The translations under genes and the position numbers were made by a program. Of a stretch of DNA of 64,000 bases, positions 1 through 22,973 are shown piece by piece. The notes under the pieces are model-generated. The model ran no database searches. It was not told the DNA's origin and worked only from the letters and a program-made list of their open reading frames with translations. Position 1 is the first letter of the stretch. Each line of letters begins with the position of its first letter. The stretch spans positions 1 through 64,000 of IMG/VR virus record IMGVR_UViG_3300007522_000367. One strand, 5' to 3'. This DNA is from a virus.

Positions 1-2
1 AG

Positions 3-1289
3 TTTATTGAATATAACATTCAAGATACTGCGCTGCTGGACAAGCTGGATAGGAAACTGCGCTTTATTGAATTAAGCAATACTATTGCACACGAGAATAC
101 AGTTCTTATTCAGACTACTATGGGCGCTGTTGCTGTTACTGAACAAGGCATTATTAACGAGGCGCACAATCGTGGACTTCAAGTTCCTAATCGTAAGAAT
201 ATAGATGACGAAGAAAACACACAGGCCGCTGGCGCATATGTTGCGTTCCCTAAAAAGGGCTTGCACAAGTGGATTGGGTCAATGGACTTGAACTCACTGT
301 ACCCTTCAGTGATTCGTGCGTTAAATATGGCTCCAGAAACTCTTGTAGGACAAATTCGTCCAGACATATCAGAAGCTCGTGTAGCAGAAGACATGGGTCT
401 TAAGAAACAGAGCTTCGCCGGTAGTTGGGAAGGTCGCTTTGCAACAGAAGAATACGATGCTGTTATGGCCAAACGTAAAGATGTTGCACTTACTATTGAG
501 TTTGAAAACGGCCAGTCTGAAGTAATGAGCGGAGCAGAGATTTACAAACTAGTATTTGACAGTAATAATCCATGGATGCTTAGTAGCAATGGTACAATCT
601 TTACACAAGAGTTTGAAGGTGTTATTCCAGGTATTCTAAAGCGTTGGTATGGTGAACGTAAAGAGTTACAAGCAAAGCTGAAGAAAGCTAAGGATGCAGG
701 TAATAAGGCAGAGATTGAGTATTGGGATAAACGTCAGCTAGTTAAGAAGATTTTGCTTAACAGTTTGTATGGTGCTATTCTTAACCCTGGTTGCCGCTTC
801 TTTGATAAGCGTATTGGACAGTCAACTACACTTACTGGTCGTACTATTGTTAAGCATATGAGTGCAGAAGTTAATAAAGTTATTACTGGAGTTTACGATC
901 ACGTTGGTGATGCTGTTATCTATGGTGATAGCGTTACCGGTGATTCGATGATTAACACATCAAATGGCATGATTGCAATTGAAGATTTGTTTGATGCAGT
1001 TGAGGATAAAGTATTACATCCTAGTGGAAAGGAATATGCAATGTTTAACGACTCGGACATTACAACACTTGGATTCCATGCATTAAATGATAAAATTACT
1101 ATTTCTAAAATGAACTATGTTATGCGTCATAAAACTTCTAAGCAATTATACAAGGTAACAATGGAAGACGGAACGTCGGTTACAGTAACAGAAGATCACA
1201 GTTTAATGATAGACCGAGATGGGTTCTTACTGGAAATAAAGGCAACAGATTTACAAGAAAATGATTTAGTTATTACTCTTGCTAAGTAG
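3..1289 (+). CDS. polB: Family B DNA polymerase (gp43-like), N-terminal gene (5' truncated by the window), ending in the N-half of a split intein
   Basis: Frame is open from nt 3 (ExoIII-like YNIQD). Region II DLNSLYPS, region III KILLNSLYG, then YGD followed by intein sequence SVTGDS... to the stop. Confidence 0.95.
   Translation, partial: FIEYNIQDTALLDKLDRKLRFIELSNTIAHENTVLIQTTMGAVAVTEQGIINEAHNRGLQVPNRKNIDDEENTQAAGAYVAFPKKGLHKWIGSMDLNSLYPSVIRALNMAPETLVGQIRPDISEARVAEDMGLKKQSFAGSWEGRFATEEYDAVMAKRKDVALTIEFENGQSEVMSGAEIYKLVFDSNNPWMLSSNGTIFTQEFEGVIPGILKRWYGERKELQAKLKKAKDAGNKAEIEYWDKRQLVKKILLNSLYGAILNPGCRFFDKRIGQSTTLTGRTIVKHMSAEVNKVITGVYDHVGDAVIYGDSVTGDSMINTSNGMIAIEDLFDAVEDKVLHPSGKEYAMFNDSDITTLGFHALNDKITISKMNYVMRHKTSKQLYKVTMEDGTSVTVTEDHSLMIDRDGFLLEIKATDLQENDLVITLAK
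930..1286 (+). mobile_element. Split intein N-fragment (119 aa, Ser1, no Cys)
   Basis: Starts right after YGD of the YGDTDS catalytic motif. Block A SVTGDSMI, block B VTVTEDHSLM, ends ...DLQENDLVITLAK*. Confidence 0.92.
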
Positions 1290-1296
1290 GGTTTTT

Positions 1297-1355
1297 TGAC
1301 TATGATGTTAAATAAGTATAGCAAGCATACAACGATAGGAGTATCACCATAGTCA
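1297..1355 (+). promoter_or_regulatory. Putative RNA hairpin occluding the endonuclease start, with a late-promoter-like TAAATAAGTA in its loop
   Basis: TGACTATG (1297-1304) is the exact reverse complement of CATAGTCA (1348-1355, which includes the A of ATG). SD AGGAG at 1337-1341. TAAATA at 1309-1314. Confidence 0.55.
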
Positions 1356-2299
1356 TGCCAAAATGTATAGAGTGCGGCACAGTCGCAAAAAGATTACAGT
1401 GGACACATTTTTTTTATAAATGTACTGGAAAGTTTAAGAACGGTAAAGAATACAAAATCGCATATCCCCATGCTAAACTAGTAGACGATGAGTTTGCTAA
1501 GTCAACAGCCTGCACACTAGTTAATATGCAAAAGAAATACGGAACAGTGCAGGGTCAAGCTGCATGGGATGATTATAAAAGAAAACAAGCGTATTCTAAT
1601 ACGCTGCAATACAAACAAGAGAAACATGGATGGACCGAAGCCGACTTTGATGAATATAATAAATCAAGAGCTGTTACATTAAAAAACTTAATAGAACGGC
1701 ACGGTGAAGTGACAGGTGCTATTAAATGGCAATCATATTGCGATAGACAGGCATACACAAACACAAAGGAATATTTCATAGAAAAGTTTGGTACTACAAC
1801 TGGTACAGACATGTACAATGAAGTGTGTAGAATAAAGTCACACTCACTAGATGTAGTAATGGAAAGAAACAACTGTGATGAAGCAGTAGCACTAGATATA
1901 ATTGCTAATTATAAACAGTCAGAAAAATATTCAAGTAATTTAGAAAAGCAGTTTGCTGATGAAATAATGTCTGCACTGGAAGAAGAATTGCGCTATTATT
2001 ACAAAACGAAACAATATTGCATTTGGGCAAATGACAAGCCGAACTTTTATGACATTGTACACAATGACAAAGCAATAGAATTTAATGGCGACTACTGGCA
2101 TTGCAATCCTAACAAATACGCTGAAAACTGGTATCATCCACAATCTGAGTTATTAGCAAGACACGTATGGGAAAAAGATGCAAAGAAGATTCAAGCATTA
2201 AAAGATAAGCGTAACATAGACACACTAATCATATGGGAGTCAGAGTATTTGGCTGATCCTAAAACAATAATTCAAAGGTGCATAACATGGCTGAAGTAA
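1355..2299 (+). mobile_element. Free-standing homing endonuclease, Vsr-like/EDxHD (DUF559-like) catalytic domain with N-terminal repeats
   Basis: C-terminal IEFNGDYWH...D..K...LIIWESE Vsr-like motif. N-terminal CxxC and tandem repeats. Lies between the two split-intein halves. Confidence 0.85.
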
Positions 2300-2418
2300 T
2301 AAGACAACGAGTAGCAAGCGTAGAAAAGATACCAAACACAGGCGACCAGTACGTATATGATATAAGCATTGCCGAAGACGATCCGTTTTTCTTTGCAAAT
2401 GGACATTTGGTTCATAAC
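2287..2418 (+). mobile_element. Split intein C-fragment (44 aa, ends His-Asn, Thr+1)
   Basis: Block F YVYDISI, block G FFANGHLVHN, followed by T. Confidence 0.92.
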
Positions 2419-3279
2419 ACAGATTCGGTCTACTTTAGTGCTTGGCCTACTTTACAAAATGAAATTAAGGCAGGCAATATTCCTTGGACTAAAGAGAATG
2501 TTATTACACTTTACGATCAAGTATCAGAAGCAGCTAATATAACCTTCCCAGATATGATGGCAAAATCATTCCATTGCCCAAAGAGTCGAAGTGTTGTTAT
2601 TGCAGCAGGTCGTGAAATTGTTGCAGAAAGCGGATTGTTTATTACTAAGAAGCGTTATGCAGCTCTAGTAATTGATACAGAAGGTTTCCGCAGTGACGTA
2701 GACGGTAAAGCTGGTAAAGTAAAAGCCATGGGCTTAGACTTACGTAGAAGTGATACTCCTGTGTTTATGCAAGAGTTTTTAAGCGAGCTGTTGCTTATGG
2801 TACTTACAGATAAGCCGCAAACTGATGTGCTAGAACGTATTACTCAATTTCGTTTAGCATTTAGTGAACGGCCAGGTTGGGAGAAAGGTAGTCCGAAACG
2901 TGCAAACAAAGTTGGACATTATCGTCGCTTAGAAGAAAAAGCCGGCAAGGCTAATATGCCTGGACACGTTAGGGCAAGTATTAACTGGAATACACTCAAG
3001 CGTATGAATGGTGACAAATACTCGCAGGAGATTGTTGATGGTATGAAAGTTATTGTTTGTAAGCTCAAGCAGAATCCATTAGGGTACACTAGTGTTGCTT
3101 ATCCGACAGACGAGCTGCGTATGCCTGAATGGTTTAAAGAACTTCCGTTTGATGATGCAGCAATGGCAGAAACAATTATTGATAATAAGTTAGATAATTT
3201 GATTGGTGTGCTTAACTATCCATTAGAGGATACTAAGCGGCATAACACGTTCAATAGTTTGTTTGACTTTGGAGACTAA
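2287..3279 (+). CDS. polB: Family B DNA polymerase, C-terminal gene, beginning with the C-half of the split intein
   Basis: ...LVHN|TDSVYF restores YGD-TDS. KKRYA and GLDLRRSD PolB motifs. AAGG SD upstream of ATG 2287. Confidence 0.95.
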   Translation: MAEVIRQRVASVEKIPNTGDQYVYDISIAEDDPFFFANGHLVHNTDSVYFSAWPTLQNEIKAGNIPWTKENVITLYDQVSEAANITFPDMMAKSFHCPKSRSVVIAAGREIVAESGLFITKKRYAALVIDTEGFRSDVDGKAGKVKAMGLDLRRSDTPVFMQEFLSELLLMVLTDKPQTDVLERITQFRLAFSERPGWEKGSPKRANKVGHYRRLEEKAGKANMPGHVRASINWNTLKRMNGDKYSQEIVDGMKVIVCKLKQNPLGYTSVAYPTDELRMPEWFKELPFDDAAMAETIIDNKLDNLIGVLNYPLEDTKRHNTFNSLFDFGD

Positions 3280-3280
3280 A

Positions 3281-3388
3281 ATGAAAATAAAATTAGAAAT
3301 AGAAATTGATACCGAGAGCGATCAGGACCTAAATACTATTGAAGAGCTAATCGAAATGTTAAAAGGACTAGTGGAGCAGATGCAATGA
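3281..3388 (+). CDS. Small hypothetical protein (35 aa, MKIKLEIEIDTESDQDL...)
   Basis: GGAG SD, fills the gap exactly, ATGA overlap with the next gene. Not in the ORF track. Confidence 0.7.
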   Translation: MKIKLEIEIDTESDQDLNTIEELIEMLKGLVEQMQ

Positions 3389-3795
3389 AGGTAGGTTTCA
3401 CCGCATCAACTTTTGATTTACTTCACGCCGGGCATGTACAAATGTTACGTGAAGCAAAAGAACAGTGCGATTATTTGATCTGCGGATTACAAGTGGATCC
3501 TAGCGTTGATCGTCTAGATAAAAATTCCCCTATACAGACTATTGTCGAGCGCTATACGCAACTTAAAGCAGTAGGATATGTAAATGAAATTATTCCTTAT
3601 GGCACCGAACAAGACCTAGAAGATATCTTGACAATGTATCATATTCATGTTAGAATATTAGGAGAGGAGTATAGAGATAAAGATTTTACTGGTAAAGACA
3701 TTTGCCGTAAAAGAGATATTGAATTATACTTTAATAAACGAGATCATCGTTTTAGTTCAAGTGATTTAAGAAAGAGAGTAGCTGATCGTGGGTAA
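3385..3795 (+). CDS. Cytidylyltransferase (TagD/glycerol-3-phosphate cytidylyltransferase-like)
   Basis: STFDLLHAGH (HxGH motif), C-terminal RxxxxSSSxLR. Confidence 0.88.
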   Translation: MKVGFTASTFDLLHAGHVQMLREAKEQCDYLICGLQVDPSVDRLDKNSPIQTIVERYTQLKAVGYVNEIIPYGTEQDLEDILTMYHIHVRILGEEYRDKDFTGKDICRKRDIELYFNKRDHRFSSSDLRKRVADRG

Positions 3796-4501
3796 TAAGT
3801 TTATATTTGATGTAGATGGAACATTAACGCCAAGCCGCAGTGGTATGAATAGTGAGTTTCAAGGATACTTTATAGACTTTTGCTATGCAAACGAAGTTTA
3901 TCTAGTTACAGGTAGTGACTATGCTAAAACATTAGAACAGGTTGGACCTGATGTTTGTGATGCTGTGATAAGGATTTATAACTGTAACGGCAATAATGTT
4001 TGGGAGAAAGGTGTGAATATTCGTACTAATGAATGGACACTTCCTGAAGATGCACACGAATGGTTATCTAATAAGCTAACCGAAAGTACCTATTGTACTC
4101 GTACAGGATTACACTTCGAACATCGCCCAGGGCTTGTTAACTTTAGCATAGTTGGACGTAGCGCTGACAAAGAACAACGAGCAGATTACGTTATATATGA
4201 TGTTCTATTCGACGAACGTAATATTATTGCTCAAGAGTTTAATGGATTATTTCCTACACTACAAGCAACGGTAGGAGGCGAAACTGGTATTGATATTGCT
4301 CCACTAGGTGCGGACAAAGCACAAATTGTTGAGGACTTTGAAGTTGAAGATAAACTTTACTTCTTTGGCGATAGAATGGATCCTGCTGGTAATGATTATC
4401 CGCTGTCGTTAGAAGTAGACGTAGCAAAGCCTGTAAAACGCTGGCAAGAAACATTTGAACTGTTACAATATTTTCAAGAAGCAAAGGTAGCAGCGAAATG
4501 A
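3788..4501 (+). CDS. HAD-superfamily phosphomannomutase-like enzyme
   Basis: FDVDGTLT, VTGSD, NFSIVGR and FFGD...GNDY motifs of PMM-type HAD IIB. Confidence 0.85.
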   Translation: MGNKFIFDVDGTLTPSRSGMNSEFQGYFIDFCYANEVYLVTGSDYAKTLEQVGPDVCDAVIRIYNCNGNNVWEKGVNIRTNEWTLPEDAHEWLSNKLTESTYCTRTGLHFEHRPGLVNFSIVGRSADKEQRADYVIYDVLFDERNIIAQEFNGLFPTLQATVGGETGIDIAPLGADKAQIVEDFEVEDKLYFFGDRMDPAGNDYPLSLEVDVAKPVKRWQETFELLQYFQEAKVAAK

Positions 4502-5259
4502 AAATTTTGCTAACGGGTCACAGGGGCTTTATAGGTACTGCATTACTTGCACGATTAACAAATAACAATGATGTAGAAGTTATACACTGTATAGACTTGC
4601 AAGCAGGTACCAACTTGCTTACTTGTGACTTTCCGAATCATGTCGATCTTGTAATACATCTAGCAGGAAAAAGCGGTGTTCGTGAAAGCCTGAATGACCC
4701 GGGTGCTTATTGGTTAAACAATGTAGAAGCAAGCCGTAGACTGTTTGAACGCTATAGTAACGCTCGCATATTGTATGCAAGCTCAAGCAGTGCGTACGAG
4801 CCCGATTTGAACCCTTATGCGGCATCTAAGTACATACTGGAAAAATTAGCAACACGGTATACTGATACTTTAGGTATGCGATTCCACACTGTGTATTCCG
4901 ACTTACCTAGAAAGAACATGTTCTTTGATAAACTATTTAATGGTACATTAGAATACGTAACTCAACACCACAGAGATTTTGTACACATTAACGATATTTG
5001 CGATGCAATTGAAATACTGATTAAAAAGACGCACGTTAATGGTATAATAGATATTGGTTCAGGTGATCCAATTAGAGTTCAGGACTTGGCTCCTGGCTTG
5101 CCTATCCGCCTAAATACTCCACATGAAAGAACATTTACATGTGCAAATTTAGAAAAAATGAAAGCCTTAGGATATAAACCTAAATATATGATAAAAGAGT
5201 TCTTGACAAACAAAGAATTAGGCACTATAATAAAACTTAACACAGGAGAAATCGCATGA
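4498..5259 (+). CDS. NAD-dependent epimerase/dehydratase (extended SDR)
   Basis: TGHRGFIG, HLAG, ASSSS, YAASK, RDFVHINDI. Confidence 0.9.
   Translation: MKILLTGHRGFIGTALLARLTNNNDVEVIHCIDLQAGTNLLTCDFPNHVDLVIHLAGKSGVRESLNDPGAYWLNNVEASRRLFERYSNARILYASSSSAYEPDLNPYAASKYILEKLATRYTDTLGMRFHTVYSDLPRKNMFFDKLFNGTLEYVTQHHRDFVHINDICDAIEILIKKTHVNGIIDIGSGDPIRVQDLAPGLPIRLNTPHERTFTCANLEKMKALGYKPKYMIKEFLTNKELGTIIKLNTGEIA
5203..5231 (+). promoter_or_regulatory. Consensus sigma70-type promoter upstream of the sliding clamp
   Basis: TTGACA-17 nt-TATAAT. Confidence 0.8.
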
Positions 5260-11847: not shown

Positions 11848-12143
11848 GATGGTTTAAAAAACTAGTAGCTAGCTGGGCAAGGCAAGGTAGCGATTATGAA
11901 GAAGAAAAATGCACAGTTGGTCGTGACACGGTAACATGTTCGCGTGATACTAAAGCAACTGTGTGCGATGCTGACCCTATACTAAACTTTAGAGTGTTTA
12001 GTGCAATAGGCGGACGTGTGGTAGAGTTTCGAACATATGATCGGGTAAAAGATCGTACTAATACAACTACTTACATTATTCACAAGGACGATGATTTTGG
12101 TGATAAGATTGCTAAAATTGCAACACTGGAGAGCATGAAATGA
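11844..12143 (+). CDS. Hypothetical protein
   Basis: ATGA overlaps on both sides. Confidence 0.65.
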   Translation: MRWFKKLVASWARQGSDYEEEKCTVGRDTVTCSRDTKATVCDADPILNFRVFSAIGGRVVEFRTYDRVKDRTNTTTYIIHKDDDFGDKIAKIATLESMK

Positions 12144-12697
12144 TTAAGAAACATTATTACAGTTGGCAAGACATTGAAAAGATGTGCGTACAGATTGTTA
12201 CTAGCATGTATGCAGACAACTGGCGTCCTGATTATATTGTAGGAATTACTCGTGGCGGCAATATTCCTGCTACTATCATTAGTAACATGCTTAAAGTTCG
12301 CTGCGAAGCACTTAAAGTTAGTTTGCGCGATAGTGAATGCGGACCTGAGAGTAATCTTTGGATGAGCGAGGAAGCGTTTGGATATAATAATGCTGAAGAA
12401 ACTGGCATTACTGGTGCAAGATGGGACCTGTCACTGCGTAAGAATATTCTTATTGTAGATGATATCAACAATAGCGGTGCTACATTCAATTGGATTAAAG
12501 AAGATTGGCAGAGCAGTTGTTTGCCCGATGAAGAAACTTGGAATACAGTTTGGCATAAGAATGTTCGCTTTGCTACACTTACAGATAATCTAGCAAGTGG
12601 GTTTAACGGCACCGTAGATTATACTTGTCACGAAATTAACAAAGCAGAAGATGACGTTTGGTTAGTTTATCCTTGGGAAACTGTTAATGAATACTAA
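12140..12697 (+). CDS. Type I phosphoribosyltransferase (xanthine/guanine PRT-like)
   Basis: VGITRGG, PRPP loop ILIVDDINNSGAT, WLVYPWE. Confidence 0.88.
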   Translation: MIKKHYYSWQDIEKMCVQIVTSMYADNWRPDYIVGITRGGNIPATIISNMLKVRCEALKVSLRDSECGPESNLWMSEEAFGYNNAEETGITGARWDLSLRKNILIVDDINNSGATFNWIKEDWQSSCLPDEETWNTVWHKNVRFATLTDNLASGFNGTVDYTCHEINKAEDDVWLVYPWETVNEY

Positions 12698-13043
12698 ACC
12701 TTGGACTGAAGTATTAGTAGATACAAAAGACTTTACAGTATATAAGGACGACTTTCCGGTAACAGAAGGTCACGTTCTTTTTGTTCCTAAAGTAGAAGAT
12801 TGGCAACATCTTGTAAAATGCTGGGAAGCAGCATACAAGTGGGGATACGATTGGACAGAACGTGGATACTGTGAAGCGTTTAACATAGGACAGAATGTAG
12901 GCGAAGCAGCAGGACAAACTGTAGAATATGCTCATGTACATTTGATTCCACGACGCAAAGAGGACATGGCGGATCCTCGAGGTGGCGTAAGGCACGTAAT
13001 TCCTGAAAAAGGAAATTATAAGAAACTACTTGACAAAGCCTAA
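12687..13043 (+). CDS. HIT family nucleotide hydrolase
   Basis: PVTEGHVLFVPK and NVGEAAGQTVEYAHVHLIPR. Confidence 0.9.
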   Translation: MNTKPWTEVLVDTKDFTVYKDDFPVTEGHVLFVPKVEDWQHLVKCWEAAYKWGYDWTERGYCEAFNIGQNVGEAAGQTVEYAHVHLIPRRKEDMADPRGGVRHVIPEKGNYKKLLDKA

Positions 13044-13058
13044 ATAACAGTGTATACT
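13030..13058 (+). promoter_or_regulatory. sigma70-type promoter upstream of folE
   Basis: TTGACA-17 nt-TATACT. Confidence 0.75.
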
Positions 13059-13101
13059 TAATAGTATATAAGACATCCACGTCAATAACTCGGAGAAATA
13101 A

Positions 13102-13794
13102 ATGACAGAAAAAAACTTATCTCAAGTGCTTCGTGAGAAGATGCACTCAGAAAATAAACGCTTTTGGGCAGGCGATAACATCAGCGAATATATTTCCAAT
13201 GATACAAAAGACATCCTTATCAACGAAGCTGCACAAGCATTTGAAAGTGTACTTGACACACTGCTAATTGATCGTGAAAATGATCCTAACAGCAAAGGTA
13301 CTGCAAAGCGCCTTGCTAAAATGTACTACAATGAGATTATGAGCGGACGTTATGATCCTATGCCTAGTGCAACGGCGTTCCCAAATGACAGCAAGGATAG
13401 ATATGAAGGCATGTTGGTTGTTCGCAGTGAGTTGCGTAGCATGTGCAGTCATCATCACCAGCCCGTTAGTGGCATTGCTTATATTGGCATTATTGCTTCT
13501 CAAAAGTTAATTGGTCTCAGCAAATATACTCGTATTGCACAGTGGTGTGCTAGACGTGGTACATTACAAGAAGAACTGTGTAATGACATCGCACGTGAGA
13601 TTAAAGCTGCTACAGGTACTAGTAACTTAGGAGTGTATATTCAAGCAACACACGGATGCTGTGAGAATCGCGGCATCATGGCAAATAGTAGTCTTACACA
13701 AACTACTGTACTTGAAGGTAGCTTTAAACACGATGCTGGTACAAAGAAAGAATTCTTTGACAATATTAAACTGCAACAGGAGTTTGCACGATGA
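13102..13794 (+). CDS. folE: GTP cyclohydrolase I
   Basis: SMCSHH, IGLSKYTR, LQEEL, HGCCENRG. Confidence 0.95.
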   Translation: MTEKNLSQVLREKMHSENKRFWAGDNISEYISNDTKDILINEAAQAFESVLDTLLIDRENDPNSKGTAKRLAKMYYNEIMSGRYDPMPSATAFPNDSKDRYEGMLVVRSELRSMCSHHHQPVSGIAYIGIIASQKLIGLSKYTRIAQWCARRGTLQEELCNDIAREIKAATGTSNLGVYIQATHGCCENRGIMANSSLTQTTVLEGSFKHDAGTKKEFFDNIKLQQEFAR

Positions 13795-21668: not shown

Positions 21669-22973
21669 ATGGCCTTACAAGTAAGACGCGGTACTAATAC
21701 AGAAAGATTAGGAATCACCCCCTTAGCAGGTGAATTAGTATATACAACAGACACAAAACAGCTATACGTAGGTGACGGTTCTACTGCTGGAGGTATTACT
21801 AGCATTTCAGGAACAATTGATTCTGTATTAGCTGATACTACTCCGCAACTAGGTGGTGACTTAGATCTAAACAGTCATAACATTACAGGTACTGGTAATA
21901 TTAACATTACAGGTACAATTACTGCTACAGGAAATATTAACCTAGGTGACGGTATTGGTAGTGATATTGTTGTGTTTGGTGGAGCAATACAAGGACATCT
22001 TGTACCAGATACTGACATTACTTGGAATTTAGGGTCTCCTACAAAACAATTTAATGAAGTATGGATTAGTCAACTTAATGTTGAAAATCAACTAACTGTA
22101 GGTCGCATTATGGGCAACTTAATTGCAGACGATAGTACTGTAGTTTTTGATGCAACTGCCGGAACATTGCTTGCAAGCACATTAACTGGCTCTGCTACAA
22201 TTAACGTAACAGGCGACTTAACTGGTAGCGTATTTGGTGATGACAGTACACTAATAGTCGACGGTATAAACAAGACTGTACTTGTTGATGTTAGTAATAT
22301 TACTACTACAAGTTCAACATATACACAAGGCGCAAATATTCGTGTCGGCGGGACAGGCGATGGAAACCTAATATTGCTTCAAGACAACTTATCTTCTGCA
22401 ACATTAATTATAACAACCGAAGATACTGCTGGCGTAGTAGTAATTCCTAGACCTGTACAAATAGGAAGTTCATCTTCACTTATTCCTAACATTACTATTA
22501 CTGTTCCTCACGGTACACCAAACAGTCCAGGATTAACAATTGCTGGCTCATTTGATACTGCTGGTTCCGCTTTTGCATCGGTTAGTAGATCAAGAGGAAC
22601 TAAGGCTGCGCCAACAGCAGTACAAACCGGCGATAGTCTAGGTGCGTTTTTATTAACAGGTTATAACGGTGTTGCTTATAGACTTGCAGGTGGTATTAGA
22701 TCTATCGCTGCTGGCGCACCGCAAGCAACATATATACCAGCAAACGTTGAATTATTTGTTGCCGGAGATGATGGCGCAGGCGAAGCTGCTCTTAGAGTAA
22801 GACGTGATCAGAAGGTTACTGAACTATTAGGCCCAATGAAACTTGTGCCGTTTACTACCGCAGAAAGAAATGCACTAACTCCAGAAGAAGGTATGGTTAT
22901 ATTTAATACTGACACAACAATAGCACAAGTATATGCTAATAGTGCATGGCGTGATATGAACGTAGCAGCTTAA
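21669..22973 (+). CDS. Virion fibre / tail-associated structural protein
   Basis: N-terminal MALQVRRGT...GELVYTTDTKQLYVGDG (Mtd/hyaluronidase-like N-domain), DTTPQLGGDLD, G/T-rich beta repeats, C-terminal TTAERNAL...GMVIFNTDT. Confidence 0.75.
   Translation: MALQVRRGTNTERLGITPLAGELVYTTDTKQLYVGDGSTAGGITSISGTIDSVLADTTPQLGGDLDLNSHNITGTGNINITGTITATGNINLGDGIGSDIVVFGGAIQGHLVPDTDITWNLGSPTKQFNEVWISQLNVENQLTVGRIMGNLIADDSTVVFDATAGTLLASTLTGSATINVTGDLTGSVFGDDSTLIVDGINKTVLVDVSNITTTSSTYTQGANIRVGGTGDGNLILLQDNLSSATLIITTEDTAGVVVIPRPVQIGSSSSLIPNITITVPHGTPNSPGLTIAGSFDTAGSAFASVSRSRGTKAAPTAVQTGDSLGAFLLTGYNGVAYRLAGGIRSIAAGAPQATYIPANVELFVAGDDGAGEAALRVRRDQKVTELLGPMKLVPFTTAERNALTPEEGMVIFNTDTTIAQVYANSAWRDMNVAA

Follow-up and report, generated by a model that had tools for sequence, protein, structure and literature searches.

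How can a replicative DNA polymerase be active when its gene is broken between the two aspartates of its catalytic motif, and what is the DNA that separates the two pieces? These questions are raised by the family B DNA polymerase gene (polB) at the start of the IMG/VR virus record IMGVR_UViG_3300007522_000367. We analysed the first 64 kb of this 87-kb viral record (called the window), whose source is a large phage, since CheckV rates the 87-kb record as 18% complete. The original prediction held that polB breaks exactly at YGD/TDS in motif C, that the N-terminal half of a split intein (IntN, 119 residues, beginning with Ser1) ends the first gene, that the C-terminal half (IntC, 44 residues, ending in His-Asn and followed by Thr at position +1) starts the second, that neither half contains Cys, and that a separate endonuclease open reading frame (ORF) fills the gap. 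All of these elements were confirmed when the ORFs were read and the residues counted, and the locus is very probably the fractured replicative polB of a large uncultured aquatic phage, interrupted by a cassette of a Cys-free split intein and a homing endonuclease.

The first ORF (3 to 1289; this and all features below lie on the plus strand) is open at the start of the record, which cuts off its 5' end. The N-terminal polymerase piece (N-extein, 3 to 929) reads ...VIYGD, with the GAT codon of the first catalytic Asp of motif C at 927 to 929. IntN follows directly (930 to 1286, with a TAG stop at 1287 to 1289), running from Ser1 (AGC, 930 to 932), in the context SVTGDSMI that is common to relatives, to ...ITLAK. 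IntC (2287 to 2418) begins with an ATG at 2287, a GTG at 2278 being a possible alternative, and ends in ...LVHN (AAC at 2416 to 2418), after which the 286-residue C-terminal polymerase piece (C-extein, 2419 to 3279) starts as TDSVYF. The Met with which IntC begins is conserved in position among relatives, whose IntC halves are mostly 42 to 46 residues long. Neither IntN nor IntC contains a single Cys (0 and 0), and removal of 930 to 2418 in silico regained YGDTDS. Between the intein halves lies the gene for a free-standing endonuclease of 314 residues (1355 to 2299), preceded by a leader (1290 to 1354) with AGGAG 5' of its ATG; its 3' end overlaps the start of the IntC gene by 13 nt (2287 to 2299), and AAGGTG is found 8 nt upstream of the IntC-gene ATG. 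The three ORFs occupy three different frames, each with its own start and ribosome-binding site.

Database matches agreed with this assignment. The ORF at 3 to 1289 matched Pfam DNA_pol_B (5.1e-27) upstream of a match to Intein_splicing (PF14890), which scored 38.0 bits on the IntN-bearing ORF, against a cut-off of 35.8, and 41.9 bits in the genome search. The C-extein fell into two PHROGs, phrog_1918 (7e-44) and phrog_262 (1.2e-40), both DNA polymerase. A near-identical IMG/VR contig, L094, contains the complete N-terminal gene, of 710 residues from the first Met (591 of extein and 119 of IntN), and the spliced polymerase predicted from this gene and the C-extein would be about 877 residues long. 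Public protein collections contain the exact window proteins without a name, and the 90% cluster of the N-terminal fragment includes members of 890 residues, which we take to be intein-free, full-length polymerases.

The possibility that the stop at 1287 and the frame offsets are errors was looked at by comparison with other assemblies. The stops and frames recur in five other IMG/VR contigs at 99-100% identity (L012/L099, L013/L096, L014, L094 and L095). Over 3400 nt, 5 positions separate L094 from the window and 8 separate L095 from it, with all stops and frames kept, while L012, L013 and the fragment L014 carry the window-type cassette in a different polB background. A Logan contig from the public run X1, possibly the source sample, spans 600 to 2800 with 0 differences. 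The three-gene layout is also kept in 60 diverged loci of the YGD/TDS type with a readable C-side junction.

All splicing motifs were found in the two halves: Ser1, the NX motif (Arg66-His67) and block B (Thr87-x-x-His90) in IntN, Asp25 of block F and the terminal His43-Asn44 in IntC, and Thr+1 in the C-extein. By these motifs, the protein is a class 1 (hedgehog/intein, HINT) intein, naturally split at the position of endonuclease insertion. An NX motif of Arg/Lys-His is described as a signature of Ser1 inteins (PMC10189870). The best solved relative of IntN is the PolB1 intein of phage Aes123 (9hth_A, E = 2.3e-13), and IntN is also related to PI-PkoII (E = 4.8e-6). A relation to Aes123 PolB1 thus holds for both components, the endonucleases being 33.7% identical, and judged by these similarities the whole cassette is homologous to a published, experimentally active one.

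In family B polymerases the two motif C aspartates bind metal and act in catalysis. Since the break parts the two Asp of the DTD triad, the polymerase should be active only once its pieces are covalently rejoined. In the mechanism that we propose, a 1.49-kb selfish cassette (IntN, an EDxHD/Vsr-type endonuclease gene and IntC) separates the two catalytic Asp of motif C, and the polymerase fragments would be translated separately. IntN and IntC would then come together as a class 1 HINT fold and splice via oxyester intermediates, with an N-O shift by Ser1, transesterification by Thr+1 and cyclisation of Asn44, to yield a single polymerase with an intact YGDTDS. The endonuclease, for its part, would cut the intein-free polB alleles of co-infecting relatives, and repair would copy the entire cassette, along with a few dozen flanking bases, into the cut alleles.

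The original prediction had called the endonuclease Vsr-like. Pfam and direct PDB sequence searches with this protein gave no match, and it was therefore placed by profile and fold methods only. It belongs to phrog_22677 (1.4e-58), of function unknown, and a search of a large protein database found 536 relatives (E <= 1e-5), nearly all about 316 residues long, 42-63% identical and unnamed. An alignment of 48 homologues revealed conserved C4, C7 (near-invariant), H18 and C23, forming a small Cys/His ribbon (CxxC...H...C), as well as invariant D233, E242 and H249 and a D275 conserved in at least 90%, all of which are present in the window protein. The AlphaFold model had a mean predicted local distance difference test score (pLDDT) of 93.2. 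When this model was searched with Foldseek, the catalytic domain of I-Bth0305I and Escherichia coli Vsr were near the top, with probabilities of 0.95 and 0.93, and a profile search of PDB sequences returned Vsr first, with the conserved WH and the second Asp aligned. The catalytic residues correspond to Asp51, His69 and Asp97 of Vsr, following Dassa et al. (2009; PMC2677866). Fold and catalytic residues thus support the Vsr-like label, and they point to a protein that would act as a nuclease. Upstream of the C-terminal Vsr-like EDxHD domain, residues 1-190 (window 1355 to 1930) comprise the ribbon followed by three helical repeats, each some 30 residues long, with starts near residues 61, 115 and 144; this region is presumably the DNA-binding part.

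The original prediction had proposed a search for intein-free alleles. We scanned IMG/VR with the C-terminal gene and inspected the best 80 of an estimated ~1100 stretches, all from the same phage group. In 77 of these best 80 relatives the N- and C-exteins abut and read YGDTDS, with no intein or endonuclease, and the cassette is present in the other 3. Compared with the 77 listed intein-free alleles, the window exteins are 80-95% (N) and 85-94% (C) identical at the amino acid level. The intein-bearing contigs L012 and L013, on the other hand, match the window at 100% in IntN and IntC and at 99% in the endonuclease, with exteins only 85% identical at the protein level. At the DNA level there are 4 mismatches in the 1557 nt from 906 to 2462, and identity outside this block drops to 60-93% per 60-nt bin. 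The block common to the two polB backgrounds comprises the cassette together with 24 nt of extein on its left and 44 nt on its right. These flanks are identical at 68/68 positions between the two intein-bearing backgrounds and match the 77 listed intein-free alleles at 42-58 of the 68, none exactly. We read the 24- and 44-nt flanks as probable co-conversion tracts of a homing event. A near-identical block in diverged backgrounds, with sharp edges at 906 and 2462, indicates recent homing, and the cassette seems to have passed from one phage lineage to another not long ago, presumably from an intein-bearing into an intein-free allele.

Public sequencing runs provided further views of this block. 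At least half of the sampled words were found in 17 runs (labelled freshwater and salt-lake metagenomes), ten of the runs listed are possible sources of this DNA, and the contigs of four runs were compared with the window in detail. In run X16, 906 to 2462 forms a separate assembly piece of 1557 nt with three of the L012-type differences; on its left side window-type and diverged pieces adjoin, and on its right side a window-type piece and a loose end matching the L012 flank. A contig from run X11 joins 930 to 2431 via 11 letters that restore the intein-free T-D-S-V coding stretch. Run X18, a seawater RNA library, contains a variant of the cassette (window 911 to 2414) that is about 93% identical and has a 27-nt insertion behind 1289. 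Thirteen of the 17 listed differences in its IntN are at third codon positions, a bias that suggests selection on the protein. We considered this library as proof of transcription of the window locus and rejected it, as it holds a related variant. The codons for TDS are ACT GAC TCT in 52 of the 77 listed intein-free alleles, and the ACA GAT TCG of the window is found in none. That such synonymous codons shield intein-bearing alleles from the endonuclease was considered, and we do not claim it: two listed intein-free alleles are one base from the TDS version of the window, and the 60 intein-bearing loci differ widely in their codon choice.

Several observations weigh against the reading of this locus as an efficiently splicing and actively homing cassette. 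IntC alone scored 18.1 bits against the Pfam cut-off of 35.8. The Foldseek E-values of the nuclease were weak (0.26-0.35), as was that of the profile match to Vsr in the PDB (E = 0.2). The shorter side of the joint in the X11 contig has 30 letters at 85% likeness, and so comes from a related phage that is not necessarily the same strain. The endonuclease leader contains an 8-bp stem (1297 to 1304 with 1347 to 1354) that ends at the endonuclease start codon and is part of the minimum-free-energy structure, but the hairpin was not significant (z = 0.06; 101 of 200 shuffles folded equally well); it is only compatible with the leader hairpins that are a feature of the loci of Dassa et al. (2009; PMC2677866). 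Finally, charge segregation between the halves is slight, with net charges of -2 in the last 60 residues of IntN and -3 in the IntC core. The corresponding values are +8 and -11 for Aes123, medians of +5 and -9 for the inteins inserted after DTD, and -2 and -3 for the cis-splicing mini-intein of Salicola phage SCTP-2. Charge complementarity, on which fast natural split inteins are reported to rely, is described as driving the rapid capture step (PMC12707363), and electrostatics is our main reservation concerning splicing efficiency and use as a tool.

This slight charge segregation bears on an alternative in which the halves no longer splice and merely dock the polymerase fragments non-covalently, in the way that domains derived from insertions bring together the pieces of other fractured phage enzymes. 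Weak complementarity could accompany a slow or poor reaction, and fractured phage enzymes that assemble without splicing have been described, namely NrdA of phage Aeh1 (PMC3045599) and likewise, according to Dassa et al. (2009; PMC2677866), gp43 of Aeromonas phage 25. However, a mere clasp would have no need of the catalytic splicing residues, all of which are intact here and across 45 distinct relatives, and a folded intein of about 160 residues would sit within the active site, between the motif C Asp. We consider docking without splicing very unlikely. An intein that splices next to an endonuclease that is inactive or retargeted, and hence a relic fixed in its lineage, would fit the proposal of Dassa et al. 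(2009; PMC2677866), where loss of the endonuclease is a later stage. The endonuclease gene of the window is, however, full length and keeps all residues that are invariant in the family; the near-identical cassette in two polB backgrounds with sharp boundaries, and its absence from 77 of the best 80 relatives, form the pattern of a recently spreading element. A relic is for these reasons unlikely. The idea that assembly or sequencing errors turned a single contiguous intein, with an endonuclease domain nested in it, into three ORFs draws on nothing beyond the general possibility of errors in metagenomes, and has next to no probability in view of the identical stops and frames in the five other contigs and in Logan contigs of several runs, and of the own start and ribosome-binding site of each ORF. 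The three-gene layout is moreover seen in the homologous cassettes of the cultured phages Aes123, PTm1, KP13-7 and VPALA, and the contiguous relative, in SCTP-2, is a mini-intein without an endonuclease.

Given that a spliced, mobile split intein is the favoured interpretation, how common are such cassettes? A scan of IMG/VR with the endonuclease alignment identified 79 loci, whose junctions were read by script. The N-side junction is Y-G/A-D followed by Ser in 69 of the 79, and Thr+1 was found at every one of the 60 YGD/TDS-type loci with a readable C-side, the other 9 being missing or unrecognised. The remaining 10 loci have a DTD/Ser junction, with Ser+1 in 9 and the residue unread in 1. 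A single intein and endonuclease family is thus found at two points two codons apart in motif C, YGD/TDS and YGDTD/S. The 69 complete IntN/IntC pairs reduced to 45 distinct ones, of which 3 are fully Cys-free (the window type, represented by 4 loci, L103 and L107), a count that is approximate because IntC starts were taken from the first Met. The nearest non-identical inteins to that of the window, L097 and L098, are 55-56% identical to it, and Aes123 is 28% identical. The original prediction had called Cys-less split inteins rare; fully Cys-free pairs are so here (3 of 45 distinct), but the split Ser1/Thr+1 PolB intein with an endonuclease is common in environmental phages (69 of 79 loci). 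For 53 distinct inteins, a quick maximum-likelihood tree (157 columns, with support from the Shimodaira-Hasegawa-like approximate likelihood ratio test, SH-aLRT) needed 3 changes of insertion point, at least 2 of them required by well-supported branches; as few changes were seen in none of 500 label shuffles. With a short alignment and several long branches, the tree offers switching of the insertion point as a lead and not as a result.

Among cultured phages, a megablast search with window 1 to 3300 gave no match. Pseudomonas jumbo phages of the PA5oct/MIJ3 group have the nearest cultured polymerases, at 51-52% amino acid identity. When IntN was the tblastn query, 50 phage records matched, led by the PA5oct group at 36.8%, with Aes123 at 27.6%; the endonuclease as query matched 39 records, at 25-39% identity, among them the 'putative VSR endonuclease' of Aes123, Campylobacter phage CP21, Tenacibaculum phages PTm1 and PTm5, Klebsiella phage KP13-7, Vibrio phage VPALA and Lak megaphages. 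The intein is inserted after D-T-D with Ser+1 in Aes123, CP21, PTm1, Lak-B5, VPALA and PA5oct, and after Y-G-D with Thr+1 in the window, KP13-7 and the contiguous mini-intein of SCTP-2.

The cassette of Aes123 (from Aeromonas T4-like phages; JN377899; PDB 9HTH; engineered as CL and CLm) shares with the window the host protein, the motif, the three-gene layout, Ser1 and the NX His, and its intein, of 120 and 39 residues, is similar in size (PMC11923092, where the structure is named). It differs in its intein sequence (28% identity), in its insertion two codons downstream (DTD/S) with Ser in place of Thr at +1, in the strong charge segregation that is absent from the window intein, and in falling into a separate clade of the intein tree. 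We therefore rejected the identification of the window intein as an allele of Aes123 PolB1; it is a homologue that inserts after Y-G-D with Thr+1, not after D-T-D with Ser+1. The MIJ3/PA5oct group has the closest cultured exteins and an IntN 34-37% identical across the group, but is inserted at DTD/S with Ser+1 and carries an endonuclease of 560 residues, for which the PA5oct annotation gives Hef-like and the MIJ3 paper HNH (PMC6892783). That paper already describes the split PolB intein of MIJ3 and its likeness to the SCTP-2 mini-intein. The SCTP-2 intein lies at the same YGD/TDS point as that of the window, but is not split and ends in Lys-Asn. Klebsiella phages KP13-7 and phiKp_21 resemble the window in the YGD/TDS point, the split Ser1/Thr+1 intein and a homologous endonuclease (34% identity), with an intein that is very diverged (about 29%) and on a long branch. 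The fractured polB of KP13-7 (OP617745, 3083 to 7846) is annotated in GenBank as three genes for 'hypothetical protein'. In CP21 (HE815464), the annotation of the polymerase region consists of some ten short coding sequences that overlap and are labelled 'putative DNA polymerase', which hints at frameshifts or faulty annotation near the published split intein of this phage.

The layout of the window locus was expected to be a known fractured-gene arrangement, and it matches the loci in which Dassa et al. (2009; PMC2677866) defined the family of Vsr-like homing endonucleases. In those loci (gp41-1, NrdJ-1, IMPDH-1 and DnaE), as in the window, the intein halves are on two gene pieces, and between them lies a Vsr-like endonuclease gene in its own frame with a 3' overlap with the downstream gene; this overlap is given there as 6-69 bp in 15 loci. 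In the portion of the paper covered by a term search, neither 'PolB' nor a split-intein locus of a B-type polymerase was found. The prototype EDxHD enzyme, I-Bth0305I (PDB 3R3P), cuts the element-free allele (Taylor et al., 2011; PMC3239194); it is intron-encoded in recA and has NUMOD and helix-turn-helix modules, whereas the window endonuclease has the Cys/His ribbon and three helical repeats.

The practical interest of the window intein is thiol-free ligation, which it shares with the Cys-less split inteins CP21 PolB1, LCGC14 PolB2, GOM-OPS-1 PolB2, PolB16 OarG and Neq Pol, all of them, like that of the window, Ser1 oxyester PolB inteins with the NX His. The inteins developed from the fractured-gene loci above (gp41-1 and others) reportedly use Cys. 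The Neq Pol and archaeal pol-c inteins presumably lie at the equivalent Y-x-D/T-D point with Thr+1. A literature search for the junction residues of Neq Pol found none, nor were they given in the portion of a review that was consulted (PMC7765530). CP21, LCGC14 and GOM-OPS-1 are described as Ser1/Ser+1 inteins with one non-catalytic Cys each (PMC12707363); PolB16 is atypically split and Neq Pol thermophilic, and in this they differ from the window. As far as the sources consulted describe them, Cys-less split inteins that are usable at ambient temperature (Aes123 derivatives, PolB16 and LCGC14) are few for protein chemists, and those derived from PolB use Ser+1. A literature search for biochemical characterisation of a naturally split Ser1/Thr+1 phage PolB intein found none, although the supplements of papers may list candidates. 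A pair that is fully Cys-free, uses Ser1/Thr+1 and shares about 28% identity with Aes123 can reasonably be regarded as a candidate for orthogonal ligation, as the original prediction had proposed from sequence.

Already in print are the layout, the endonuclease family, split Ser1 PolB inteins from phages (Aes123, CP21, LCGC14 and GOM-OPS-1; PMC12707363) and, for the closest phages in culture, a split PolB intein. With 69 of the 79 loci at YGD/TDS and a published split PolB intein in MIJ3/PA5oct, the locus is less novel than first scored. What the window locus adds is modest: its intein lacks Cys altogether, as few members of the family do, and it documents a recent transfer with unusual clarity. 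For the biology of mobile elements it provides a natural snapshot of homing, in which the donor-type block, the co-converted flanks and empty targets are visible in metagenomes. Neither this snapshot nor the value as a tool alters the understanding of how such elements work. A more far-reaching reading, which we offer tentatively and regard as doubtful, would join these points: the window intein may stand for a large, mesophilic clade of Ser1/Thr+1 PolB inteins that are split by nature and are spreading now as a 1.56-kb unit among aquatic phages; the insertion register of the family may have changed between YGD/TDS and YGDTD/S more than once with the same endonuclease family; and the window allele, among the very few that are Cys-free, may be an efficient thiol-independent tool orthogonal to CLm, LCGC14 and PolB16.

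The 87-kb record contains no second copy of the endonuclease or the intein, and scans for promoters and terminators gave scores at background level only. Directly 3' of polB (window 3385 to 5256) lies a small sugar-nucleotide module, with genes for a cytidylyltransferase, a phosphomannomutase-like haloacid dehalogenase (HAD) enzyme and an NAD-dependent epimerase, and further downstream (12140 to 13791) are genes for a phosphoribosyltransferase (PRTase), a HIT protein and GTP cyclohydrolase I. The ORF at 21669 to 22970 has an Mtd_N domain (2.9e-11), the N-terminal domain of the major tropism determinant, which is a type of target protein of diversity-generating retroelements. A block rich in tailoring enzymes (23465 to 52507), mostly on the minus strand, adjoins tail-fibre genes and includes eight radical-SAM ORFs (one with SPASM), two fatty-acid-desaturase-like ORFs, a PhyH dioxygenase, an ATP-grasp enzyme and a PanD-like aspartate decarboxylase.

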